Shown: piece after piece, positions 2,782-42,021 of the stretch
How the letters are laid out: the number at the start of each line of letters is the position of its first letter
Position numbering within the stretch: position 1 is the first letter of the stretch
Source of the DNA: Escherichia phage vB_EcoS-phiEc3
DNA length: 45,288 bases
Sequence record: NC_073323.1
Direction: 5' to 3' (one strand)
Made by a program: the position numbers and the translations under genes
Notes under the pieces: generated by a model
The model's input: only the letters and a program-made list of their open reading frames with translations
Databases searched by the model: none
What the model was told of the DNA's origin: nothing

Positions 2782-3858
2782 ATGCTATTAACTTTAGCGC
2801 CACAGGGTTTATCTATGAGCTTACTTACATCCCTAATCAGCCATCAGATATGGCTGCAACGCACCGCATCCGGTGAGGTGAAAGACCTCACGCCGTTCAT
2901 TCAGGAGATAAGGGATGAAATCAAACGGCAGGTGCTGTTATTCGGTGACGACGGTCGCAGCACTGCGCGACTGAATAAACTGTTACGCGACCTGGAAGAA
3001 GCACTAACCGGTATTACGGGTGACTGGCAAACAAAGCTAACAGACGACCTTAAGGAACTGGCGGCGTACGAGGCTGAGTGGAACGTAAAGACACTGACCG
3101 CCAACGTAGACGCGGAATTTGTTACGCCTACCGCTGAGCAGGTATGGGCCGCTGCCGAGTTTCAACCATTATCATTGAGCGACAAGCCCGTTGATTTCAC
3201 CAAGCTGATGTCTGGATGGGGCGAAACGGAAGTAGCACGTCTTGTAACTGGAGTTAAGATGGGCTTTGTGCAAGGTCAAACCACACGGCAGATTGTTAAG
3301 AATGTTGTTGGCGCTGGTGGACTAGCCGACATCTCAGAACGTAACGCGGCTACGGTAATCCGCACCGCGCTGTCCCACGTATCCAACGAGGCCCGTAACG
3401 AGACGTACCGCCAGAACGACAACATCATCGAGAAGTACGAGTGGGTGTCAACGCTTGACAGCCGCACCAGTACGATTTGCAGGGTCAGAGACGGGATGAC
3501 GTGGGAAATTGGTAAGGGGCCGATGCCCCCAGCCCATCCGAACTGCCGGTCGTGCACGGCTCCGGTAATCAGTTCCGAGTTCGACTTCCTCGATAAAGGC
3601 GCAAAACGCGCGGCTAAAGGCGCGGAAGGTGGCACTCAGGTAAGCGCAGACACCACTTACTACGAGTTCCTTAAACAACAACCGGCGTGGTTTCAGGACC
3701 AGGCGCTCGGCCCGGTGCGAGGTAAGATTTTCCGTAACAGCGGTATATCGCCGGAAGAGTTTCGCGTAATATCTGTAGATGGTTTCGGGAATCCGCTCAC
3801 GCTTAAGCAGATGGCGGAACTCGATAAACGTGTTGCTGATTATCTGAAAGGGGATTAA
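2782..3858 (+). CDS. Head morphogenesis protein (minor head protein, SPP1 gp7/Mu F-like)
   Basis: 358 aa ORF following portal; start may be internal ATG at 2815. Confidence 0.6.
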   Translation: MLLTLAPQGLSMSLLTSLISHQIWLQRTASGEVKDLTPFIQEIRDEIKRQVLLFGDDGRSTARLNKLLRDLEEALTGITGDWQTKLTDDLKELAAYEAEWNVKTLTANVDAEFVTPTAEQVWAAAEFQPLSLSDKPVDFTKLMSGWGETEVARLVTGVKMGFVQGQTTRQIVKNVVGAGGLADISERNAATVIRTALSHVSNEARNETYRQNDNIIEKYEWVSTLDSRTSTICRVRDGMTWEIGKGPMPPAHPNCRSCTAPVISSEFDFLDKGAKRAAKGAEGGTQVSADTTYYEFLKQQPAWFQDQALGPVRGKIFRNSGISPEEFRVISVDGFGNPLTLKQMAELDKRVADYLKGD

Positions 3859-4319
3859 TGATGGGCTTTTTCAAAGTAACTGATGTGCCGTCGCGTCGCG
3901 TAGTTCAGTACGCCCGCGTATCTGGCTCTGGTGAGAACGTGGTGTTTATTGAAGACGAAAGTGTACTGGGTACCCCTGTAGACGACATGCCGTTTGCGGA
4001 TAAAACCGGCATTGCGCTGCCTGCGGCCGGTATGCTCTATGAGATTCCGTATCTGGCGGACGCAGGCGATGTGTATTTCTCTGTGCAACCAAAAGACGCT
4101 GAACTGGCCGACGGCAGCGCGACTATCACTGTCGAAGTTAAAGCAGGTGAAGCGCCGTATGCACTGACCTGGTACAAAGACGGTAAGGAAGTTGTCAACG
4201 CCCCGGAAGAGGCACTTTCCTTGACGGTTAACGCAGTGGGTGAATACTTCGTTAAAGTTACCGATGCTGATGGTGTAGAGGCTGTCAGTAAAGCTGCGAA
4301 GGTCACTAAGCCCGAATGA
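3858..4319 (+). CDS. Ig-like domain protein (possible capsid decoration)
   Basis: ATGATG start after AGGGGA RBS; C-terminal beta-rich segment with APYxLxWYKDG motif typical of Ig-like folds. Confidence 0.6.
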   Translation: MMGFFKVTDVPSRRVVQYARVSGSGENVVFIEDESVLGTPVDDMPFADKTGIALPAAGMLYEIPYLADAGDVYFSVQPKDAELADGSATITVEVKAGEAPYALTWYKDGKEVVNAPEEALSLTVNAVGEYFVKVTDADGVEAVSKAAKVTKPE

Positions 4320-4323
4320 TAAA

Positions 4324-4349
4324 AGGCCCCATTAAGGGGCCTTAGTTTT
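4324..4349. terminator. Bidirectional intrinsic terminator (GGCCCC-ATTAA-GGGGCC flanked by A and T runs)
   Basis: Perfect GC stem, AAAA upstream and TTAGTTTT downstream, between convergent genes. Confidence 0.6.
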
Positions 4350-4552
4350 CAACGGAATCTTGTGTTTAAATCCTGCTCGTGGACGACCCTCAGAACAGTG
4401 TCATAATCCCCGTATCTTCCAGGTTCAAATACATCTAATGCCTTGTAAGCAGACATTGCGTCAGGGAAAACCTGCAGAACCTTTTTAACACGGCACAAGT
4501 CACCGTCGAACTCTTCATCGAACTCTTGAACTACTTCGCAAATTGCATACAT
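4349..4552 (-). CDS. Hypothetical protein, 67 aa, opposite-strand insert in head module
   Basis: ATG start, own minus-strand promoter at 4580-4608, ends at bidirectional terminator. Confidence 0.55.
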   Translation of the reverse strand: MYAICEVVQEFDEEFDGDLCRVKKVLQVFPDAMSAYKALDVFEPGRYGDYDTVLRVVHEQDLNTRFR

Positions 4553-4579
4553 TTTTCACCTCCTGCTTAAGTTAACTGA

Positions 4580-4608
4580 ATAGTACCCTATTATATTGGG
4601 GTGTGCAA
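4580..4608 (-). promoter_or_regulatory. Sigma70-like promoter TTGCAC-17-TACTAT (conserved element copy)
   Basis: -35 at 4603-4608, -10 at 4580-4585 on minus strand; 33-bp core repeated near-identically at 13949-13977 and 37708-37736. Confidence 0.5.
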
Positions 4609-4674
4609 ACTATTTATTTACTTATTCCAGTTATTCCGCTCAATTGTAAATGTTGGAATAAACTATTCGAATAG

Positions 4675-4703
4675 TTGACTTTTCACTAAAAATATGATAA
4701 GCT
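4675..4703 (+). promoter_or_regulatory. Sigma70-like promoter TTGACT-17-TGnTAAGCT (extended -10)
   Basis: Conserved with 37399-37427; 17-nt spacer, TG at -15/-14. Confidence 0.5.
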
Positions 4704-4707
4704 CCAC

Positions 4708-4817
4708 CTGAGCTTGTGAAGTATGAACAAGCGACCGCGGCGCTGGCAGGTAACGGAGCGGGACGTAAGTCCTGAGTGTAGTTACGCTGACGCGTTCGGA
4801 AGGGCCATACTCTATTG
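4708..4817 (+). ncRNA. Candidate structured leader RNA, copy 1
   Basis: Paralogous to 37431-37541; three helices supported by compensatory changes; no conserved ORF. Confidence 0.5.
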
Positions 4818-4883
4818 CTTGTGTAAAAAGTAACAGGTTTACTTAGATTACGCCGTTTCTATGTTTAAATGATAAGGACTAGC

Positions 4884-4910
4884 GCCCTGCTTTAAGGCAG
4901 GGCTTTACTT
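4884..4910 (+). terminator. Terminator/attenuator-like hairpin GCCCTGC-loop-GCAGGGC plus TTTACTT
   Basis: 7-bp GC stem then T-rich tail, between leader RNA and spanin gene RBS. Confidence 0.45.
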
Positions 4911-4927
4911 ATCGAGAAAGGGGAAAC

Positions 4928-5314
4928 ATGAATCTTAAAGCAACCGTCGTAGCAGGAGCATGTTTCATCATCCTGGCTTACACACACGGCATTTATCAGT
5001 ACCGCAGCGGCTGGCACGAAGGCCGCGCTAATCTCGTTTCGCAGCAACAGCAGAAAGCACAGGCCGAGTTAGCGAAGAAAACACAACGGCAGCAGCAAGA
5101 TGAATCAAAGGCCGCCGCCGCTGACAACGAAGGCAAGACGAAATCAGAGGTGATCACCCGTGAAGTCGTTAAGTACATTAAAACTCCTGGTCGCAGCGTG
5201 TGCACTTTCGACCCTGAGCGCGTGCAGCTCAAGTCCCGCGCCGTCGCAAACGCCAATTCCATCCCCGGATACGACGATGATGCAGCCGCCGTGCAAGCTG
5301 GCACCGCCGAGTAG
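4928..5314 (+). CDS. Rz-like i-spanin
   Basis: N-terminal TM helix, Gln/Ala/Lys-rich coiled coil, RBS GAGAAAGGGG; contains embedded out-of-frame lipoprotein gene. Confidence 0.6.
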   Translation: MNLKATVVAGACFIILAYTHGIYQYRSGWHEGRANLVSQQQQKAQAELAKKTQRQQQDESKAAAADNEGKTKSEVITREVVKYIKTPGRSVCTFDPERVQLKSRAVANANSIPGYDDDAAAVQAGTAE

Positions 5315-5423
5315 CGACGCTGACGAGGATTTAGCTATCGACGTTCAGAACGCTGAATGCGTACGGCAGCTGCGGCTGAAAGTGTTCATGTTGCAGGATT
5401 ACGTGAGGAATATTCTGGAATAG
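5160..5423 (+). CDS. Rz1-like o-spanin (lipoprotein), overlapping Rz in another frame
   Basis: GTG start after AGAGGTGA; signal peptide with lipobox LSAC, Pro-rich mature region. Confidence 0.5.
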   Translation: MKSLSTLKLLVAACALSTLSACSSSPAPSQTPIPSPDTTMMQPPCKLAPPSSDADEDLAIDVQNAECVRQLRLKVFMLQDYVRNILE

Positions 5424-5505
5424 TTGCCTTGCATGTTGGAATAATTTATTCTTGACATGTAAATCCGGGTGGCCCGGGTTCCAACGTCCAGGGGACATAC
5501 TGACT

Positions 5506-6210
5506 ATGAATCGTTTTTTACGTTATCCGTTCCAGGAAGAAGCTGGGGCAGAAGATAAAGCTGGTGGCGGTGACGCGCCGAAAATGTTCACCGCTGAAGA
5601 AGTTCAGGCGCTGATTGAGAAAGAAGTTGCCGGGCTTAAGGCTAATCAGGAAGCATTGTTGGCGGAGAAGAAAGAAGCCGCTCGCAAAGCAAAAGAGGCC
5701 GAAGAAGAACGGCAGCGCGCGCACCAGGAGGCGTTAAAAGCCGCTGGTAAGATGGATGAGTTCGAAAAGACGATTCGTAGCCAGTATGACCCGGTGTTAG
5801 CCGAGAAAGACGGTCGCATCTCCAGAATGGCAGAGCGTATCCTCGGCAGCGAACGTAAAGCGGTGCTAGGCTCTTTCGCGGGTGACTTTATTACCCCAGA
5901 AGCAGTGGACATTCTTGCGCCGTTCGTTAAGACTGAGTTCGAAGGCGATGATGTGGTTACTAAGTTTGTTGGCGCAGACGGCAACGTAATCACGACTGAC
6001 CCGGAACAGTTCCGCAAATACTTGCGAGAACACAAAGCGTTTTCACATTTGATTAAAGCAAATGCAGCTTCCGGCGGCGGGGCTTCCGGTAGCAAAGGCG
6101 GCGGGGCCGCACCAGCGTTTAAAGACATGAGTGAAGCGGAGCGTATCGCTCTGTACGAATCGAACCCTGCCGAATTTGAACGGCAACTTAAAGCCCTGAG
6201 GAAAAAATAA
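5506..6210 (+). CDS. Scaffolding protein
   Basis: Coiled-coil Ala/Glu/Lys-rich protein immediately upstream of major capsid gene; ATG at 5506 after AGGGGA (track ORF starts 5452). Confidence 0.6.
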   Translation: MNRFLRYPFQEEAGAEDKAGGGDAPKMFTAEEVQALIEKEVAGLKANQEALLAEKKEAARKAKEAEEERQRAHQEALKAAGKMDEFEKTIRSQYDPVLAEKDGRISRMAERILGSERKAVLGSFAGDFITPEAVDILAPFVKTEFEGDDVVTKFVGADGNVITTDPEQFRKYLREHKAFSHLIKANAASGGGASGSKGGGAAPAFKDMSEAERIALYESNPAEFERQLKALRKK

Positions 6211-7259
6211 TGGCAATTACTACTATCGGCGACATCGTAACTGGTAAAGAATCGGTAATCCTGTCCTACATGACAGAGGACCCGGTAGAGAAAACCGCGT
6301 TCTTCCAGTCCGGTATCCTTACCTCGACTCCGTATGCCGCCGCTATCGCAAACGGCCCGTCCAACAAAGCGGTCCTGCCGTACTGGAAAGCTATTGATAC
6401 CTCTATCGAGCCGAACTACTCGAACGACGTATATCAGGACGTCGCCACCCCGCGTAACGTGCAAACCGGTGAGATGGATGTTCGCGTAGCTTACCTGAAC
6501 GAAGGTTTTGGTCAGGCTGACCTGACGGTAGAACTGACCAGCCAGAATCCGCTGCAATCCGTGGCTTCCCGTCTGGATAACTTCTGGCAGCGTCAGGCAC
6601 AACGCCGTCTTATTGCTACCGCGCTCGGTCTGTACAATGATAACGTAGCGGCTACCGATGCGTACCACGAGCAGAACGACATGGTTATTGACGTGTCCGC
6701 TACTCTGGGCTTCGACTCCGGCGCGTTCATCGATGCTACCCAGACTATGGGCGATGCGCTGATGGGTAACGGTGGTGAAGTGCTTGGCGCTATCGCGATG
6801 CACAGCTTCGTTTATGCGCAGGCGCGTAAGCAGCAGCTTATCGACTTCATTCGCGACGCTGACAACAACACCATGTTCGCCACCTACCAGGGCTATCGTG
6901 TGATTGTTGACGACAGCATGACCGTAGTCGGAACTGGCAACAGCCGTAAGTTCATCTCCATCATCTTCGGCAACGGTGCTATCGGTTACGGCGAAGGTTC
7001 TCCGTCAAACCCGCTGGAATACGAGCGCGAAGCGTCTCGCGGTAACGGTGGTGGTGTCGAAACCCTGTGGACCCGTAAGACCTGGTTGCTGCATCCGTTT
7101 GGTTACAGTTTCACCAGCACTGTAATCACCGGCAACGGCACCGAGACTATCGCCCGCTCTGCTTCCTGGCAGGACCTGGCGAACGCTTCCAACTGGAACC
7201 GTGTGGTTGACCGTAAGCATGTACCGATTGCCTTCCTGGTAACTGGTGTCGGGGCTTAA
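6210..7259 (+). CDS. Major capsid protein
   Basis: 349 aa, follows scaffold with overlapping stop/start, followed by strong terminator. Confidence 0.7.
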   Translation: MAITTIGDIVTGKESVILSYMTEDPVEKTAFFQSGILTSTPYAAAIANGPSNKAVLPYWKAIDTSIEPNYSNDVYQDVATPRNVQTGEMDVRVAYLNEGFGQADLTVELTSQNPLQSVASRLDNFWQRQAQRRLIATALGLYNDNVAATDAYHEQNDMVIDVSATLGFDSGAFIDATQTMGDALMGNGGEVLGAIAMHSFVYAQARKQQLIDFIRDADNNTMFATYQGYRVIVDDSMTVVGTGNSRKFISIIFGNGAIGYGEGSPSNPLEYEREASRGNGGGVETLWTRKTWLLHPFGYSFTSTVITGNGTETIARSASWQDLANASNWNRVVDRKHVPIAFLVTGVGA

Positions 7260-9330: not shown

Positions 9331-9689
9331 TGAGCACAGCTTTCAGTAAACGTATGCAAGGCGTAGGTACACGCCTGTTAACCAAATTCGGTAGCACGGT
9401 ATCTCTGATTCGCGCTGGCTCGAAAGTGTGGGATGAAGTTCTCGGTGAGTACGTCTGGTCTGCGGATGAAGTGTTGCCGTTGAAGGCCGTTCCGGTTCCT
9501 GTTAATGCGGGTCTGGTGAACGGTACGACGATTCAGGCTGGTGACATGATTGTTAAAGCCGATTACAGCGTCGTTCCTAAGATGGAAGACAAAGTGCAAT
9601 TCGGCGGCGAGCAATGGTCCGTCGTAGCCATTGAGAAGAAGGTGGTTAACGATGATGTTGTGTCCTACTTTATTCAGGTGAGAAAATGA
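9330..9689 (+). CDS. Head-tail joining / head closure protein (putative)
   Basis: ATG overlapping upstream stop (TGATG), RBS GGAGG; track ORF begins further upstream at 9276. Confidence 0.55.
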   Translation: MSTAFSKRMQGVGTRLLTKFGSTVSLIRAGSKVWDEVLGEYVWSADEVLPLKAVPVPVNAGLVNGTTIQAGDMIVKADYSVVPKMEDKVQFGGEQWSVVAIEKKVVNDDVVSYFIQVRK

Positions 9690-10081
9690 GTTTCGCGCTG
9701 GACGTCTCTAAGTTCGTGGAAAAGGCGAAGAAGAACCCTGAGAAGGTGATGCGTCAGGTGTCTATCAAGCTGTTTTCCGCTATTATAAAGGCGAGTCCGG
9801 TAGATACTGGTCGGTTTCGCATGAACTGGATGGCATCTGGCGGTACTCCTGCTTCCGGGATTACGGATGCTACGGATAAATCAGGAAACACAGCAACCGG
9901 AAACGCTACAAGTTTCGTGCTGAAAGCCACCGACTGGCATGAGTTCACGCTGACAAATAACCTGCCGTATGCACAACGGCTGGAGTATGGCTGGTCGCAA
10001 CAGGCCCCGCAAGGATTCGTCAGGACTAACGTGTCCCGCTTCCAGCAACTCATTAACGAAGAAGCTAGCAAGGTGAGATGA
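9686..10081 (+). CDS. Tail completion / neck protein (putative)
   Basis: 131 aa ORF, overlapping coupled starts. Confidence 0.55.
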   Translation: MSFALDVSKFVEKAKKNPEKVMRQVSIKLFSAIIKASPVDTGRFRMNWMASGGTPASGITDATDKSGNTATGNATSFVLKATDWHEFTLTNNLPYAQRLEYGWSQQAPQGFVRTNVSRFQQLINEEASKVR

Positions 10082-10494
10082 TGGGCTACTTTGAGGACTT
10101 AACAAAAGCGTTTGATGTGCCGCTGGTAGCCTTCGGAACCACCAACGGCATCAAGGTAGCGCTTGAAAACATCGACGCGCCGACGTCAACAGATACGCCG
10201 TATCTGGCAAGTTACATGTTGCTGGCGGATACCGAGCAGGCTGACTTATTCTTCACGGAACAACGCGCCGGTGTCTATCAGATAGACATTAACTACGCAT
10301 CGGTGAAAGGTAGCGCGCCAATCAATAAAATGGCAGACTTACTTAACACGGCGTTTAAAGCAGGTAAGTCATTTTCACGTAACGACATCTGCGCCGAGGT
10401 TCAATCGGTAAGCCTGGGGCCGCTGATTGTAGAAAACGGATGGGCCAAAAGACCATTGTCAATTAACTTTATTGCATTCACCAAGAGGCTGTGA
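10078..10494 (+). CDS. Tail terminator-like protein (putative)
   Basis: 138 aa ORF immediately before major tail gene. Confidence 0.5.
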   Translation: MMGYFEDLTKAFDVPLVAFGTTNGIKVALENIDAPTSTDTPYLASYMLLADTEQADLFFTEQRAGVYQIDINYASVKGSAPINKMADLLNTAFKAGKSFSRNDICAEVQSVSLGPLIVENGWAKRPLSINFIAFTKRL

Positions 10495-11828: not shown

Positions 11829-12059
11829 TTATTCGTCGATATTGCTTCTATACTCCCGTAACTTCTCCAGACTTTCAATTGCTTCCGCTAAGTCGGTTCC
11901 TGTGTCCTTGTGCCCACGAAGACCCATACACAGCAGCTTCTTCAATGCGTGCTGTAGCGCCGGGTCGCGGATATCGAAGGCGCGGAGCACATCGTAAACG
12001 TCTACAGTCATAGTGCTGCCGTGGGTGTTTGCCATTGTGCGGTTGTATTTATTGGTCAT
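11829..12059 (-). CDS. Hypothetical protein, 76 aa
   Basis: Last gene of minus-strand cassette. Confidence 0.5.
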   Translation of the reverse strand: MTNKYNRTMANTHGSTMTVDVYDVLRAFDIRDPALQHALKKLLCMGLRGHKDTGTDLAEAIESLEKLREYRSNIDE

Positions 12060-13714: not shown

Positions 13715-13906
13715 CTACTTCTCTTTCACGTTCGAGTTGCAAGCCCAGATTAAAATGAATACCCACGGCAACAGAATCCACCCGAGAAATAAGTTAGCCA
13801 TGAATATCGCCAGCTTTGCTTTATGGTTACGCATATGTGCCACCAAAAACGGGATAAAATAAACGGCTACAAAAATAATTAAGAAGAACATAGTGATACC
13901 GGTCAT
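13715..13906 (-). CDS. Small membrane protein
   Basis: Two predicted TM helices; start at internal ATG 13906 with AGGAG RBS (track start 13933 lacks RBS). Confidence 0.5.
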   Translation of the reverse strand: MTGITMFFLIIFVAVYFIPFLVAHMRNHKAKLAIFMANLFLGWILLPWVFILIWACNSNVKEK

Positions 13907-13948
13907 AACATAACTCCTGATTTGAGATAACATCGTTGGTGTAAGTGA

Positions 13949-13977
13949 ATAGTACGCTATTATATTGGGGAGTGCAA
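13949..13977 (-). promoter_or_regulatory. Sigma70-like promoter TTGCAC-17-TACTAT (conserved element copy)
   Basis: Same 33-bp core as 4580-4608; drives minus-strand cassette; plus-orientation -10 TATATT overlaps. Confidence 0.5.
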
Positions 13978-14084
13978 GTAGTGTGCTAGAATAATTTTGC
14001 GCCTAGTGTCGCACACGAAAAGCGGGTGGTTCCCGTCTGGCGCATTTCCTTTAACCAGTAACCTCTTAACCAAAGGATTAAAGA

Positions 14085-27307: not shown

Positions 27308-27595
27308 CTAACTATAATAGTTCGCTATTAGGGCGTCAACCTGTTTAAACGAACCAACGACAAAAACATTAGCACCACGCTTACGCATCCGCTCGTGCTC
27401 CCGTAACTGGTGTGGATCCGGCTTCGTGCTTTCGTCTTTCTTTATCTCGACGAACCAGATGACGCCGCCGGGGAGAATTACCAGCAGGTCAGGGGCGCCG
27501 GAACGTCCTTCGTAGGAAAGTTTACGAACGAGGCCACCAATGGCCTCGAATCGGTCTTTTGCGTATTTCTGTATTTTGCCCTCAGGCGTACTCAT
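27308..27595 (-). CDS. VRR-NUC domain nuclease
   Basis: Motif VIWFVEIKKDESTKPDPHQ (PD-(D/E)XK-like); ATG at 27595 after GAGGGG (track starts at GTG 27631). Confidence 0.6.
   Translation of the reverse strand: MSTPEGKIQKYAKDRFEAIGGLVRKLSYEGRSGAPDLLVILPGGVIWFVEIKKDESTKPDPHQLREHERMRKRGANVFVVGSFKQVDALIANYYS
27311..27339 (-). promoter_or_regulatory. Sigma70-like promoter TTGACG-17-TATAGT with AATAG-N4-CTATT dyad in spacer
   Basis: Same architecture as 31071-31099 and 33982-34010. Confidence 0.5.
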
Positions 27596-27797
27596 CCACA
27601 CACCCCTCACGTTTCGTATGCGCAATACCACAGCGCGGACAGATCCGGCTGTCTTCTTCGTAGAACCAGTAAATTTTCATTCCAGCACCCACAGATAAAT
27701 TGTTACTAACATACCTAATACGGCAACCATCATGCCGTATTGACCCTCGTGACAGTAGACACCGGCGGCGAATCCCGCCAGTACCGCAATAATCAGT

Positions 27798-30062
27798 TTA
27801 CTTGGCATATCGCTTCATCTCCGCACCTTCAGCTACAAGAGGGAACCCCTCCGCCCATTCCGGCAATTCGCACATCAACCGCTCAAGCTCTGCTACATTG
27901 TATTCCGGTGAATCTGGTGTCTCGCAGATAATCTCATCGTGTACGTGAAGTACAATCGGGTAGCCGTTTGCTTCTACGTTCAGCAGGGCATTAGCCAGCA
28001 AATCACGGCACAATGCCTGAGTGCAGTTTTCCACCAGTTTACCGGAGTAGGTGTACTGGAAGCCCCACTGCCTGGTTAACTGATTTTCACCCTGATACTT
28101 GATGCGCACGTTAGTAGAAACTTTTCCGTCTTCGTCTGTCTCTTTTGACACGCTCAACCCGACGCCCGGGTATGACATAACGCGACCTGACGGCAACGTC
28201 ATGCGCAACCACCAACCAGCGACTTTGTTGCCGTTGTTGTCTGTTTCTACGTTGCGAGAAAACTTAACCCCGCGAGGGCCAGCGGTGAACTCTTTACCTG
28301 GATTGCGGATAGCTGCCATAGCGGCGTCTTCAATATCCCGCCAGAACGCTACTGTTTCCGGGTGGGACTCCCGCCACATACGCTTGATAGCGTCGCAGGT
28401 ACGCCACACTTTCTTATCAAGAATATATGATGGTCGGTCATCTTTTTCACCGGGCCGCGGAGGTCGCTTTGCTTCCTGAATACGCGCCCATTCATAGCCG
28501 CGTGCAGTAGCGGCCCATATATGGTCCGGGAAAGTACCGTCCATTGTTTTAGCCATATCAACCAGGTTTAAGCCGAGGTTCTTAGCAAACTGAACGAAAG
28601 CACCGACACCACCAGCATAGCCAAGTCCCAATTCACATGCTTTACCTATCTGGCGTAGGTCACTACGGCTTTCGAGAATGTAATCAGGGTCCATGCCGAA
28701 CATCTTACCCGCGGTTACACAGTAAATATCCAATCCCGCACGGAAGGTATCGAGAGCGGTTTCTTCTCCCGCCAGCCATGCCAACCCGCGACCTTCAACG
28801 TTAGAGTAATCAGCTACGACAAACTTACGCCCGGCTTCCGGTATGATGCAGCTACGCACCGTCGATGCCGTTAGCTTGGCTACATCGAAACGGCGATGCG
28901 CGCGGCCTTTAAACAACAGGTCGATTCCGTAGGACAATGGGTGTGTTACTCTCCACCAATCCTTCTCTGACATCCAGTCATAACGTACTTTCTTCTTTTT
29001 ATTCTTCGGGTCGTCGTGATAGTACCCACGCGCGAGGTTCTGCGGCTGGAAGCCTTTACCTGCAAACCGTAACGTACGCTTAGCTCCACCATATTGTATG
29101 CAACCGCGACGGCGGTCGTCAGAAGAGCGGCCTAACAGCAGCGGGTTATATTTCGTGGACGCTGTTGACGCGGCCCCGAGGCGCATTTCGATAATCGTGC
29201 GGGCGTCGTCAGGTAAATCATCATCGGCCAGCAGGTCATTCAGCGTCGACTTCTGTGCGTTGTGTACGCGGTGTGCGGGGGCCAGTTCACGTAGAATAGG
29301 CAGAAAGTCCTTACCGGTAAGCGAGCCGCCGTATTTACGTTGAGCTTCTTCCTGTAACTGTGCCTTGTGCTTCTCTACGGCTTCAATCGCGGCTTCCGCC
29401 AGTGCGACGTCAACCTTAAATCCGCGGTCGTTGATTAACTGGTCAAGTTCCAGTACACGGTCTTCGAACTCGGAGTTACCCCAACGCGGCAGCTTATGGA
29501 AGACTTCACGCATCGCAGTGATGTCGCTCACGGCGTACCTGATGAACATCGCCCACTCGTCAGGGTGAGTTTCTGCGGTGTAGCGGCGGATTTTGTAGTT
29601 CTTCGGCGTCGGTTTAGAGAAACGCTTAATCAGAGCCTTGCCGCGTTTATCTTTCGCGTTGTCTGCAGACACGCCCAGCACTTCGCACAGCGCATCAAGA
29701 GAACCCGGCAGCGCGTGACGGAACGCCCAAATCATAGTATCAATGGTGTTACTTACCGGAATATCAAAGCCCCAGCAGTGTTTCATGATTAGGCGATCGA
29801 AAAGTCCACCGTTGTGCCACACAATCTTGATGCGGCTGTTGGGCTTAACAAGGCGGCGCAGTGCGCGGTGCAAATCCCCCGGCATGTCGCTGCCGTCGGT
29901 GCAATCCCATACCTGCACAGGCTCTTCGTCAAAAGCATAGGTACAGATAAGCACTTCGGTTGACGGGTGTTCAGCGTAAGCGTAGGAACCTACTTTCTTC
30001 AAATCGATGTCGCTGTAGGTTTCAAAGTCTAAGTAAAGCAATGTGTTCATAGTCTGTACCAC
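27798..30062 (-). CDS. DNA polymerase, family A, with 3'-5' exonuclease domain
   Basis: Exo motif YLDFETYSD, Pol A motif A DYSNVEGRGLAWL, motif B RQIGKACELGLGYAGG, motif C VHDE; start may be ATG at 30050. Confidence 0.85.
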   Translation of the reverse strand: MVQTMNTLLYLDFETYSDIDLKKVGSYAYAEHPSTEVLICTYAFDEEPVQVWDCTDGSDMPGDLHRALRRLVKPNSRIKIVWHNGGLFDRLIMKHCWGFDIPVSNTIDTMIWAFRHALPGSLDALCEVLGVSADNAKDKRGKALIKRFSKPTPKNYKIRRYTAETHPDEWAMFIRYAVSDITAMREVFHKLPRWGNSEFEDRVLELDQLINDRGFKVDVALAEAAIEAVEKHKAQLQEEAQRKYGGSLTGKDFLPILRELAPAHRVHNAQKSTLNDLLADDDLPDDARTIIEMRLGAASTASTKYNPLLLGRSSDDRRRGCIQYGGAKRTLRFAGKGFQPQNLARGYYHDDPKNKKKKVRYDWMSEKDWWRVTHPLSYGIDLLFKGRAHRRFDVAKLTASTVRSCIIPEAGRKFVVADYSNVEGRGLAWLAGEETALDTFRAGLDIYCVTAGKMFGMDPDYILESRSDLRQIGKACELGLGYAGGVGAFVQFAKNLGLNLVDMAKTMDGTFPDHIWAATARGYEWARIQEAKRPPRPGEKDDRPSYILDKKVWRTCDAIKRMWRESHPETVAFWRDIEDAAMAAIRNPGKEFTAGPRGVKFSRNVETDNNGNKVAGWWLRMTLPSGRVMSYPGVGLSVSKETDEDGKVSTNVRIKYQGENQLTRQWGFQYTYSGKLVENCTQALCRDLLANALLNVEANGYPIVLHVHDEIICETPDSPEYNVAELERLMCELPEWAEGFPLVAEGAEMKRYAK

Positions 30063-30325
30063 GTCTGATAGTCTGCTTCTGTGAGATGGTCGTCGCGATC
30101 TTGTTTCTTGTTTTTACCGCGTTCTATGATTTCTGCCCAAGTCCGGTCTGGGTCTGTGTCTTCTATTAAATGTTTATGCTCCTCGCATGCATAGTGTTTA
30201 TACCAGTCTCGTACACCGTAAGCTGGAGGGTATTTAGTCATCCAAATTGCTCTAACTTTTTTACCTTCTGCCTTACAAAATTTGCAGTATGTGATGCGTC
30301 TGTATCTCTTAAGTTCCGCTGCCAT
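30047..30325 (-). CDS. Hypothetical Cys/His-rich small protein
   Basis: CxxC...CxxH pattern; overlaps polymerase start. Confidence 0.5.
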   Translation of the reverse strand: MAAELKRYRRITYCKFCKAEGKKVRAIWMTKYPPAYGVRDWYKHYACEEHKHLIEDTDPDRTWAEIIERGKNKKQDRDDHLTEADYQTWYRL

Positions 30326-31017: not shown

Positions 31018-31070
31018 CGTGATTTCTCGCTTTTAAGTTTACTCCGGGAGCTGCCCGGCCAGTGATTAGA

Positions 31071-31099
31071 ACTATAATAGCTAACTATTCATGTGTCAA
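31071..31099 (-). promoter_or_regulatory. Sigma70-like promoter TTGACA-17-TATAGT with AATAG-N4-CTATT dyad
   Basis: Perfect -35, 17-nt spacer. Confidence 0.55.
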
Positions 31100-33953: not shown

Positions 33954-33981
33954 ATCTTCACCTCTCGTTTGGTATGGGCTA

Positions 33982-34010
33982 ACTATAATAGCGAACTATT
34001 CACTTGTCAA
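33982..34010 (-). promoter_or_regulatory. Sigma70-like promoter TTGACA-17-TATAGT with AATAG-N4-CTATT dyad
   Basis: Perfect -35, 17-nt spacer; divergent from HTH gene. Confidence 0.55.
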
Positions 34011-36835: not shown

Positions 36836-37126
36836 TTATCTTTTAGCCAGACATTCCATCAAATGTGCGTACTTACGATAATAATCTGCGACAATCTCAT
36901 CACCGAAATACTGATAAACGTAGGATAGGTGGTCGGAGACATCGATGGAAGCCGACATTGTGCTGAGTCTTCTTAGACTAATCGACTGCAATTCTTCTGT
37001 AACGCAAAACGGCAAATATGAGTCCAGTTTACAGGAAACGTTAAAACACAACGCATACTCACCTTGCACTAAATAGACCATATAAGCACTGTCATTTTCT
37101 TTATCGTGGAAAATTACACCTTTCAT
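36836..37126 (-). CDS. Hypothetical protein, 96 aa
   Basis: ORF in leftward early operon. Confidence 0.45.
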   Translation of the reverse strand: MKGVIFHDKENDSAYMVYLVQGEYALCFNVSCKLDSYLPFCVTEELQSISLRRLSTMSASIDVSDHLSYVYQYFGDEIVADYYRKYAHLMECLAKR

Positions 37127-37293
37127 TTCACGTTCTCCTTAATCCACGCTTCAACTTTATTACGGTCAAATGTTCCTGGTAAACGGCGCCCCATTACTTT
37201 AACGCTGCAATCAGGAAACTTTCCACTCTTAATCCAGTTATTGATTGTCTGGCGGGTGACGCCGATTAATTCTGCAACTTCATTGATAGTCAT
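37123..37293 (-). CDS. AlpA/excisionase-like HTH DNA-binding protein
   Basis: Motif MTINEVAELIGVTRQTINNWIKSGKFP; ATG at 37293 after AGGAG (track extends to 37383 via TTG). Confidence 0.6.
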   Translation of the reverse strand: MTINEVAELIGVTRQTINNWIKSGKFPDCSVKVMGRRLPGTFDRNKVEAWIKENVK

Positions 37294-37322
37294 CTCGCGC
37301 TCTCCTGTGTAATATGTATCGA

Positions 37323-37351
37323 AGTATAAGGCGGTAACTTTGTAAAAGCAA
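37323..37351 (-). promoter_or_regulatory. Sigma70-like promoter TTGCTT-17-TATACT (leftward early)
   Basis: 17-nt spacer; 8-bp inverted repeat TAACTTTG/CAAAGTTA at 37335-37342 and 37365-37372. Confidence 0.45.
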
Positions 37352-37398
37352 CCAAAACACCACGCAAAGTTACTAAAATACAAAAGATGCTACTGGTA

Positions 37399-37427
37399 TT
37401 GACTTTTACTTGAAAATATGCTAAGCT
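37399..37427 (+). promoter_or_regulatory. Sigma70-like promoter TTGACT-17-TGnTAAGCT (rightward early)
   Basis: Conserved with 4675-4703. Confidence 0.5.
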
Positions 37428-37430
37428 TCA

Positions 37431-37541
37431 CTGAGCTTGTGAGATATCGCAAGCGACCGCGGAGCGGCAGGGAACGCAACGCGTGCCATTAGGCACTTGA
37501 GTGTAGTTCCGCTGACGCTTTCGGAAGGGTCAAAGTCTATT
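37431..37541 (+). ncRNA. Candidate structured leader RNA, copy 2
   Basis: Paralogous to 4708-4817 with compensatory substitutions in two helices. Confidence 0.5.
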
Positions 37542-37609
37542 GTTAATCCCGCCTAAATATCCAAGTCACTGATAATTAAAAGTTTCTATAGTTGCCGTGA
37601 GCAAGGTAG

Positions 37610-37707: not shown

Positions 37708-37736
37708 TTGCACACCCCAACATAATAGGATACTAT
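37708..37736 (+). promoter_or_regulatory. Sigma70-like promoter TTGCAC-17-TACTAT (conserved element copy)
   Basis: Same core as 4580-4608 and 13949-13977; AGGAG RBS follows. Confidence 0.5.
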
Positions 37737-37770
37737 TCACTTATCGGAACGAGACAGAGGAGTGATGGTT

Positions 37771-40192: not shown

Positions 40193-40485
40193 TGTCTCTG
40201 GCAACTGACATCCTGAAACGAAGCGGCCTTGCGCCGCTGTCACCGAGAGCGAACACCCGAATATACAAGCGCCGCCGTAACGCGCTGTACCCCGAGATAC
40301 AAGAACGGCGTAAAGCTATCCGCGCCTGTGGATTCCAGAACGGGAAGGCCGTTAATCTAGGTGAGTTCAAAACACAGGAACGTGCTGCAATCGCTAATCG
40401 GCTATTTAATTACTGGAAATCTCTTGGTTATGATGATATTCCGACGAAACCGCAGAGACGACAATACATCTGGAGACATAAATGA
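40192..40485 (+). CDS. Hypothetical basic protein, 97 aa
   Basis: ATG overlapping upstream stop. Confidence 0.45.
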   Translation: MSLATDILKRSGLAPLSPRANTRIYKRRRNALYPEIQERRKAIRACGFQNGKAVNLGEFKTQERAAIANRLFNYWKSLGYDDIPTKPQRRQYIWRHK

Positions 40486-40922
40486 CTACTATCGCGTTCG
40501 ACGGAAAGACAATGGCCTGCGACACCCGTGTTGTGTGCGGGAGTAACTGTTACAACACAGACACAAAGATATACGAGAACGATTTTGCTGTTATCGGGGT
40601 GGCTGGTGATGCGGGGGTGGGGACTATGCTTATCGATTGCCCTGATATTCTTCAGGCAAAGCACTATGACTTCGATTTCGAAGCCCTTGTGTTCGTGAAA
40701 GACACAGAAAAGGTGTATAAAGTCGCTTTTTATAAATCGTGGGATTGCGCCCTTAGTTCGGTTATTCCGGTTGCGGATGGCTTTGCAGCTGTTGGTTCCG
40801 GCGCACCTTATGCACTGGCGGCTATGGAATGCGGATATTCGGCACATGGTGGCGTAGCCGTTGCGTCGAAGTTCGACACCAACACCGGCGGCAAGATTAT
40901 TACCAAACAACTATTAGGATAA
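40482..40922 (+). CDS. HslV-like Ntn-hydrolase (proteasome beta-type peptidase)
   Basis: N-terminal MTTIAF (Thr nucleophile at position 2), [17 protein letters not shown] and [12 protein letters not shown] alignable to HslV. Confidence 0.6.
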   Translation: [146 protein letters not shown]

Positions 40923-40981: not shown

Positions 40982-41290
40982 TTGGATAAATTTACTGAAA
41001 CAGTGACAGGCTGGCTTCTCGCTGCCGCACTCGCCGGAGGGGTCATCGGACTACGACAACATAAGTCCGTTATTTCTGGACCCATCGACGGCTTATTCTT
41101 TATTGTAACCGGCTTCGCTTGCGCCGTATTCGGTGCGCCTCTCGCTGCCCAATGGTTCGGCATTACCGGGGAGCGTGAAATCGCTGGTCTGGGTTTCATC
41201 ATCGCTATTCTCTGGATGCCTATCTATTCCCGCCTCTCCGGTATCGTCGCCGGGGAATACATCTCACGTCGAGGAGGCCCGGATGAATGA
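40982..41290 (+). CDS. Holin (three predicted TM helices)
   Basis: TTG start 7 nt after GGAGGA; precedes endolysin. Confidence 0.55.
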   Translation: MDKFTETVTGWLLAAALAGGVIGLRQHKSVISGPIDGLFFIVTGFACAVFGAPLAAQWFGITGEREIAGLGFIIAILWMPIYSRLSGIVAGEYISRRGGPDE

Positions 41291-41555
41291 GTTATTCTGG
41301 TTCGGCGGTATGCTGGCAATCGGGGGTACATCGCTGTTTAATGTGTACCATCCCAGCGTTGATGACGGGCTGTTCGGCCGGGTGCTCTATATCCTGACTG
41401 CTATCGTCTGCGCCGCCGGATGTATCCACCTGTTACAGGGCAGCGTGTCACCAACGCTGCCTGAGACATTAATCACATTAGTTGCGCTGCGCCAGATTCG
41501 TCAGGCGTGGCTGTCATACGGAGGACATAAGCGTGTCTCGAAATATTTCAGATAA
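41283..41555 (+). CDS. Holin-like / antiholin membrane protein (two TM helices)
   Basis: ATG after GGAGG; between holin and endolysin. Confidence 0.5.
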   Translation: MNELFWFGGMLAIGGTSLFNVYHPSVDDGLFGRVLYILTAIVCAAGCIHLLQGSVSPTLPETLITLVALRQIRQAWLSYGGHKRVSKYFR

Positions 41556-42021
41556 TGGACTGCATTTCACCGCCGCGTTCGAGGGGTTCCGTGGTACTGC
41601 ATATCGTGCTACGCCAAATGAGAAGTACCTGACTATTGGGTACGGTCATTATGGGCCAGACGTAACGCCAGGCAAGACCATCACCCCCGGACAAGGCCTC
41701 CTGTTACTGAACCGTGATATGGCTAAGGCTGTAGCTGCTGTTGACGCAGCAGCACACCATTCATTGACACAGGCACAGTTCGACGCTGTTTGCGACCTGG
41801 TCTACAACGCAGGTGCTGGTGTGATTGCTGCTACTACCGGCACGGGTAAGGCACTGCGTTCTGGTGATATTGCAACGCTGCGGGCTAAGCTGGCGCTGTT
41901 CATCAACCAGAACGGCAAACCGATACTTGGACTGCGTCGTCGTACCGCCGGTCGTCTGGCGCTGTTCGACGGTAAACCGTGGCAGGAGGCTGAGGCTATC
42001 GGGCGCGCGGTGAAAGGTTGA
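41533..42021 (+). CDS. Endolysin, lysozyme-like (GH24-type)
   Basis: Motif GLHFTAAFEGFRGTAYRATPNEKYLTIGYGHYG; GTG start 8 nt after GGAGG. Confidence 0.7.
   Translation: MSRNISDNGLHFTAAFEGFRGTAYRATPNEKYLTIGYGHYGPDVTPGKTITPGQGLLLLNRDMAKAVAAVDAAAHHSLTQAQFDAVCDLVYNAGAGVIAATTGTGKALRSGDIATLRAKLALFINQNGKPILGLRRRTAGRLALFDGKPWQEAEAIGRAVKG

Follow-up and report, generated by a model that had tools for sequence, protein, structure and literature searches.

Among the described two-component spanins, the lambda Rz/Rz1 pair consists of a type II inner-membrane protein and a small, proline-rich outer-membrane lipoprotein encoded in the +1 frame, with Rz1 fully embedded in Rz and the genes placed in the S-R-Rz lysis cassette. 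The P2 LysB/LysC genes, which sit in the lysis cassette as well, are overlapped, i.e. the o-spanin gene continues beyond the i-spanin stop. The T7 spanin genes 18.5/18.7 are located between both terminase genes and are unlinked. For T4, the spanin genes PseT.3/PseT.2 were likewise reported not to be adjacent to holin or endolysin (Kongari et al. 2018, Fig. 8 legend, PMC6139136). The same study defined a 'Jersey' overlapped spanin family of 27 members, including Jersey, SETP3, K1G, K1H, K1ind1-3 and HK578, for which it predicted i-spanins with two helices and a beta-strand linker, described a 155-bp overlap in phage Jersey and o-spanin cysteines 45 and 67 that are constant in the family, and also discussed separated variants (PMC6139136). 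Membrane fusion is the proposed spanin mechanism according to a further study (PMC5295617). In the genome announcement of phage Schulenberg, overlapping spanins were described as genetically separate from holin, antiholin and endolysin, and the papers on phages Golestan and fBC-Eco01 list the spanins as ORF7/8 or gp11/12, with holins and endolysin toward the opposite map end. Our literature search retrieved no experimental report on any member of the Jersey spanin family.

We analysed the 45,288-nt sequence of Escherichia phage vB_EcoS-phiEc3 (NC_073323.1, hereafter the window), which is a complete, circularly permuted Kagunavirus (Guernseyvirinae) genome. Region 4000-6500 exhibits 100% identity to Escherichia phage vB_Eco_K-01 and 92-98% identity to many Kagunavirus coliphages, in whose records the two ORFs at 4928-5423 are labelled 'Rz-like spanin' or 'putative spanin'. 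Judged from sequence comparison, the two ORFs very probably encode the two-component spanin of Kagunavirus and belong to the published Jersey family, of which the pair is a plain member, as both its overlap and its unlinked position are already known from the literature. The features discussed below are compiled in Table 1.

Table 1. Coordinates of the spanin genes, the preceding regulatory elements and the distant lysis genes in the window.
Feature	Position	Strand	Description and basis
Perfect 12-bp palindrome CTATTCGAATAG	4663..4674	+	Abuts the -35 element; candidate regulator-binding site, proposed from its sequence
Promoter-like site	4675..4703	+	-35 TTGACT (4675-4680), 17-nt spacer, extended -10 TGaTAAGCT (4695-4703)
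Structured leader RNA, copy 1	4704..4818	+	Short hairpin, long bulged hairpin, unpaired CGGAAGGG tail; covariance model R1, 136.9 bits
GC-rich hairpin	4884..4903	+	8 bp, loop TTAA, weak T-tract; 24 nt before the i-spanin start; terminator-like scan
i-spanin gene	4928..5314	+	ATG, 128 aa; predicted N-terminal transmembrane helix and periplasmic helix, invariant Cys92; ORF, phrog_2536, hydropathy, AlphaFold
Shine-Dalgarno GAGGTGA	5147..5153	+	Inside the i-spanin gene; 6 nt before the o-spanin GTG
o-spanin gene	5160..5423	+	GTG, 87 aa, +1 frame; signal peptide 1-21, predicted-lipidated Cys22, Cys45, Cys67; ORF, PHROG, conservation
Motif repeat TGTTGGAATAA...TTGACA	5434..5456	+	Between o-spanin and scaffold gene; no -10 after it
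Promoter and leader RNA, copy 2	37399..37543 (RNA 37428-37543)	+	79% identical to copy 1; 104.1 bits
Holin-like protein, class II holin-like in relatives	40982..41290	+	phrog_2359 holin, E = 7e-29; fEg-Eco06 annotation
Holin-like protein, class I holin-like in relatives	41283..41555	+	phrog_2508 holin, E = 6.2e-34
Endolysin, lysozyme family	41533..42021	+	phrog_7 and phrog_33703; start placed by comparison with fEg-Eco06

Profile searches assigned the upstream ORF to phrog_2536 'Rz-like spanin' (E = 1.1e-56). Hydropathy analysis revealed a single hydrophobic segment at residues 5-23 (Kyte-Doolittle 19-residue mean 1.59), behind which lies a Gln-rich stretch, and we infer a single N-terminal transmembrane domain that would orient the protein N-in/C-out. 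In a single-sequence AlphaFold prediction, residues 3-64 form one helix (block-mean pLDDT 74-88), and the C-terminal half is of low confidence, with residues 78-128 mostly at pLDDT <50. All 28 representative homologues keep Cys92, which lies inside the motif ITREVVKY..PGR.VC.FD.

The downstream ORF has 155 nt in common with the i-spanin gene and runs 109 nt beyond its stop. Its N-terminus, MKSLSTLKLLVAACALSTLSAC followed by SS, features Lys2 and Lys8, a hydrophobic core, the lipobox LSAC, Cys22 and a serine at +2, and MKSLSTLKLLVAACALSTLSAC satisfies a PROSITE-PS51257-like rule for a signal peptidase II signal. The mature part of 66 aa contains 13.6% proline and further cysteines at positions 45 and 67. 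The protein shares 95% identity with the K1ind2 o-spanin and matches phrog_1267 (E = 2.7e-20, residues 9-86) as well as phrog_5672 (E = 4.4e-30), a profile of 47 residues built from truncated gene calls. The lipobox pattern by itself is weak evidence, as it also matches five other phiEc3 ORFs, none of them credible-looking; one of the five was compared with a relative and found not to be conserved. It is conservation that decides the case for the o-spanin, which is the only credible lipoprotein ORF in the phiEc3 genome. A single-protein spanin would likewise require a lipoprotein signal, and no credible one was found in the other ORFs of the genome. Ahead of the second holin, a lipobox-like extension (41175) was rejected, as a stop interrupts the frame in phage fEg-Eco06. 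The main structural proposals of the first-pass annotation, namely a membrane protein with a Gln-rich stretch, a proline-rich lipoprotein ORF with an LSAC lipobox in another frame, and an overlap in which the latter runs past the stop of the former, were all recovered.

To assess conservation, phiEc3 was combined with 84 related loci (80 from viral metagenome contigs, the rest from annotated phages) into a set of 85 sequences chosen by the conserved C-terminal o-spanin motif. In all 85, down to approximately 40% identity, the frame opens with GTG or ATG and encodes a hydrophobic signal as well as a lipobox cysteine at position 15-23, and a purine-rich ribosome site precedes the o-spanin start in nearly all tabulated relatives. 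An upstream ORF with a transmembrane segment was paired automatically in 80/85 sequences, a comparable N-terminal hydrophobic segment being defined by a 17-residue mean >1.4. The overlap between both genes amounts to 155 nt in 42 loci, with 143, 119 and other values elsewhere and only 8 nt in 'separated' variants. Alignment of six representatives revealed that Cys22, Cys45 and Cys67 of the o-spanin are invariant. The +2 residue of the mature o-spanin is S, G, Q, A, N, P, R or K in the 80 tabulated loci and Asp in none, and with Ser at this position the phiEc3 protein is predicted to be sorted to the outer membrane.

These data bear directly on the proper start of the second gene. GenBank records of close relatives, including vB_Eco_K-01 and Bas75, call an ORF of only 47 aa from the ATG at 5280, in agreement with the 47-residue length of phrog_5672; such a product would contain no signal peptide, and no outer-membrane lipoprotein would be made. 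We regard this as highly improbable, since in all relatives, even at only about 40% identity, the 40 upstream codons stay open despite dual coding and keep the start, ribosome site, hydrophobic core and lipobox cysteine, since phrog_1267 aligns with residues 9-86 of the o-spanin, and since a ribosome site is absent before the ATGs at 5277/5280. The full-length overlapping gene is moreover present in the BASEL annotation of phage KarlBarth and in the Schulenberg paper. The o-spanin is systematically mis-annotated in the records of relatives: in PQ435593 and PQ850596 it is called as 47 aa from the internal ATG, with loss of signal peptide and lipobox, in MN336266 the i- and o-spanin labels are swapped, and in ON602745 and NC_028695 the o-spanin is missing. 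As a side observation, the 1990s record of Salmonella phage MB78 (X87092) annotates the o-spanin frame as 'p11.5' (1232-1555) from an upstream ATG. The same record marks a ribosomal frameshift site at 2252-2258 in the scaffold gene (p26/p28); the scaffold gene of phiEc3 lies at 5506-6210.

We also compared the genomic context of the pair among relatives. In 80/80 metagenome-derived loci, the spanin pair is located between the head-morphogenesis gene, often trailed by a Hoc-like decoration gene, and the scaffold/major capsid genes, and the same position was found in annotated Jerseyvirus, Klebsiella and Enterobacter Guernseyvirinae phages and Dhillonvirus. The placement in the head module is ancestral to this phage lineage. 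Such constant neighbours could also be expected if the pair served head assembly or packaging, for example as a membrane-anchored assembly factor. We consider such a function very improbable, as the combination of an inner-membrane protein and an outer-membrane lipoprotein, a +1 overlap and conserved periplasmic cysteines represents the spanin signature, and as the T4 spanin genes are not located beside holin and endolysin either (PMC6139136). Furthermore, the genome encodes holins and an endolysin, and no other spanin candidate was found in it. Phage-encoded outer-membrane lipoproteins with exclusion functions exist, as exemplified by T5 Llp and the Cor proteins. That the lipoprotein acts in superinfection exclusion or receptor masking in this way, with an unrelated role for the membrane protein upstream, is exceedingly improbable, given that both genes are strictly linked and co-vary in the 80/85 automatically paired loci, that a separated-gene form of the Jersey family exists (PMC6139136), and that superinfection immunity has a gene of its own at 13715-13933.

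Comparison of the phiEc3 spanin pair with the Jersey family revealed homology to the Jersey and K1G spanins, the 155-bp overlap, the constant Cys45 and Cys67 and a proline-containing linker before the conserved C-terminal part, all of which argue for membership. The only difference is not substantive, with LSAC/Cys22 in phiEc3 as opposed to LASC/Cys23 in some Kagunavirus relatives. Cysteines that could form intermolecular disulfides in the periplasm would be Cys45 and Cys67 of the o-spanin and Cys92 of the i-spanin. The phiEc3 pair also shares the overall design of lambda Rz/Rz1, including the overlapping o-spanin gene in the +1 frame, and the same expected role in outer-membrane disruption via membrane fusion. 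In contrast to lambda, the genes are overlapped and not embedded, and they lie in the head module, downstream of the endolysin, and not in a lysis cassette. Lambda Rz1 is smaller than the phiEc3 o-spanin and has one periplasmic cysteine, whereas the mature phiEc3 protein of 66 aa has two. The overlapped arrangement resembles that of P2 LysB/LysC, although the sequence match to P2_Rz1 is sub-threshold only, and the genes of T4 (separated) and T7 (embedded) are both unrelated in sequence to the phiEc3 pair.

In line with this, neither spanin gave a significant Pfam match; Rz or Rz1 models were absent among the matches at E<=0.1, and DUF2514 alone gave a weak match (16.4 bits vs a cut-off of 26). 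In NCBIfam, the sole Rz1-like model to appear was P2_Rz1 (P2 LysC, NF038368), at 13.3 bits (E = 0.07) and thus far below the cut-off of 27. As the Pfam and NCBIfam scores stayed below threshold, assignment to the Rz/Rz1 or the LysB/LysC family at the sequence level was rejected, which led to the conclusion that the pair is Rz/Rz1-like in design, not in sequence. The earlier designation 'Rz/Rz1-type' accordingly holds for the architecture and fails for the sequence, while the reading of the locus as a head-module spanin pair without linkage to holin and endolysin is upheld by PHROG profiles, GenBank annotations and the Jersey family.

PHROG profiles also confirmed the positions proposed initially for the holins and the endolysin; in the endolysin, a sequence inspection by eye revealed no evident N-terminal signal-anchor. 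An HslV-family peptidase homologue is encoded directly upstream of the two holin genes (40482-40922, plus strand; phrog_1040, E = 2e-34). The first-pass annotation had placed holin and endolysin about 36 kb away from the spanins, a value that turned out to be an artefact of linear coordinates. Joining the last 1000 and first 1000 bases of the window afforded one collinear alignment with 98.3% identity across the junction to fEg-Eco06, whose record opens elsewhere on the circle. As the junction between end and start is unbroken, the circular map has 8,194 nt between the endolysin stop (42021) and the i-spanin start, with the endolysin as the upstream gene and both genes on the plus strand. Besides small genes, the interval holds those for the portal, the two subunits of the terminase, head morphogenesis and the Hoc-like protein, and its plus-strand run is interrupted solely by the minus-strand ORF 4349-4552. 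A corresponding arrangement is found in fEg-Eco06, with the endolysin at 2501-2986, the i-spanin at 11901 and one small minus-strand ORF in between.

Several further observations concern this interval. The distance between the Hoc-like gene and the leader varies in length and content across relatives, and the small minus-strand gene inserted there in phiEc3 occurs in only 3/80 related loci. Its insert (4323-4620) carries a promoter-like repeat at 4573-4608 and a hairpin at 4323-4343 with a stem that is identical when read on either strand. The head-morphogenesis gene of fEg-Eco06 contains an 894-nt insertion (9553-10446) annotated as an intein, which is absent from phiEc3 at 3473/3474.

As stated by the first-pass annotation, the i-spanin gene is preceded by a copy of a leader RNA and a terminator-like hairpin. 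A covariance model built from Kagunavirus leader copies (R1) detected exactly two sites in the phiEc3 genome. The second copy lies in a divergent intergenic region, as deduced from the gene orientation in phage phiEc4, and heads the plus-strand block with holin, endolysin and small terminase subunit. R1 further identified a single site ahead of the i-spanin gene both in phiEap-2-like phages and in Jerseyvirus, the old MB78 fragment among the latter, and no leader site in the Klebsiella group or Dhillonvirus. Copy 2 is present in only a minority of relatives, with 220 matching places in 179 records. The promoter-like site is kept in copy 2 (37399-37427) and in relatives, and a promoter is annotated at the corresponding place in phage fBC-Eco01; a simple sigma-70 scan did not call the site at 4675-4703, and literature on MB78 promoters yielded nothing relevant.

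Across relatives, 93% of cells in the leader alignment are paired and 16/29 pairs show compensatory changes, compared with 27-41% pairing in slid-partner controls, figures that are biased toward structure by an alignment fitted to the covariance model. RNAalifold on a plain MAFFT alignment gave a partial structure with misaligned hairpins and was replaced by the covariance-model alignment. Rfam searches yielded no match at the leader, neither over the whole genome at gathering thresholds nor at permissive E-values for both leader copies and the Jerseyvirus and phiEap-2 loci. Homology to the put RNA of phage HK022 was also considered and rejected, as an unfiltered R1 search over HK022 27600-30100, which we take to be the location of the put sites, gave 5.7 bits at best, i.e. 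no similarity in the region searched. Relatives annotate a 36-aa 'hypothetical protein' inside the leader (4723-4833, plus strand in phiEc3), which is probably not a gene: in copy 2 the frame has no start codon and contains an internal stop, and start positions differ between genera.

The stem of the hairpin at 4884-4903 is kept via compensatory changes in Kagunavirus and Jerseyvirus. Jerseyvirus does not retain the T-tract, so that a role as terminator is uncertain, and the hairpin could possibly act as an attenuator, a terminator or a stabilising element. An antiterminator/terminator pairing between the leader tail and this hairpin was dropped, as inspection by eye revealed only 4-5 bp that are not conserved.

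In the intergenic region behind the o-spanin gene, an inverted repeat GAATAATTTATTC followed by TTGACA (5438-5456) is related to the palindrome at 4663-4674. Palindromes with AATAG/CTATT half-sites were observed beside or within promoter-like sites at 4663-4674, 5438-5456, 13942-13977, 27310-27339, 31070-31099, 33981-34010 and 37708-37743; one of them abuts the -35 element of the leader promoter and others lie in the spacers of minus-strand, probably early, TTGACA-17-TATAGT promoters. They look like the operator set of one regulator, with early promoters possibly repressed and late ones activated. An HTH_17 protein is encoded on the minus strand (37123-37383) adjoining leader copy 2. The sole Rfam match at gathering score in the genome was an int-alpA RNA (13996-14060, plus strand; 36.6 bits vs a cut-off of 35.8) directly ahead of the tail assembly chaperone gene (14085), at the point where, past a minus-strand block, the late genes on the plus strand start again; it is a second leader-type RNA at a late-gene restart point.

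By analogy to lambda and T4, on which our view of localisation, complex formation, membrane fusion and timing is modelled, and following the mechanism summarised in PMC5295617 and by Kongari et al. (PMC6139136), the N-terminal helix would hold the i-spanin in the inner membrane, with the helical domain reaching into the periplasm. Translation of the o-spanin would begin at the GTG within the i-spanin gene, in the +1 frame; after export, the protein would receive its lipid at Cys22 and be sorted to the outer membrane, in its inner leaflet. Binding of both proteins via their C-terminal parts, with covalent dimerisation through the conserved cysteines, would then give rise to disulfide-linked complexes across the periplasm. 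The peptidoglycan mesh would hold these complexes inactive until holins and endolysin destroy the wall, upon which the freed complexes may fuse the inner and outer membranes as the last step of lysis. As the spanins would be restrained by peptidoglycan, only their late accumulation is needed, which leaves them free to occupy a map position other than that of the lysis cassette; since late accumulation would be sufficient, a place in the head module is compatible with spanin function.

This distance in the map does not imply separate control. The spanins are the first cistrons behind leader RNA and hairpin in Kagunavirus, Jerseyvirus and phiEap-2-like phages and share their place behind the leader with the scaffold/capsid genes. 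The initial proposal that they are co-regulated with structural genes rather than with holin and endolysin is unsupported, as the same promoter and leader, in copy 2, head the holin/endolysin block, and we see no reason to assume a regulation apart from these genes. In the low-resolution transcriptome of the relative K1B4, lysozyme and capsid genes fall into the same 'middle' class, with the spanins unmentioned. Whether the leader acts as a cis-acting control element, for example by antitermination, by attenuation or by being bound by a phage protein, and coordinates outer-membrane disruption, capsid production and wall degradation, is a tentative idea that we consider rather unlikely.

Overall, the locus adds nothing new to spanin biology, as family, overlap and unlinked position are all published. 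The analysis flags a recurrent annotation error, in which many GenBank records shorten the o-spanin to 47 aa, leave it out or swap its label with that of the i-spanin. It also corrects the layout of the lysis genes: on the circular map, 8 kb of the same strand separate the holin-endolysin block from the spanins, which are not at opposite ends. The structured leader before the spanins is the only element at the locus that may merit separate study; if the proposed control were true, one new RNA element, and not gene adjacency, would coordinate outer-membrane disruption, capsid production and wall degradation in these phages.
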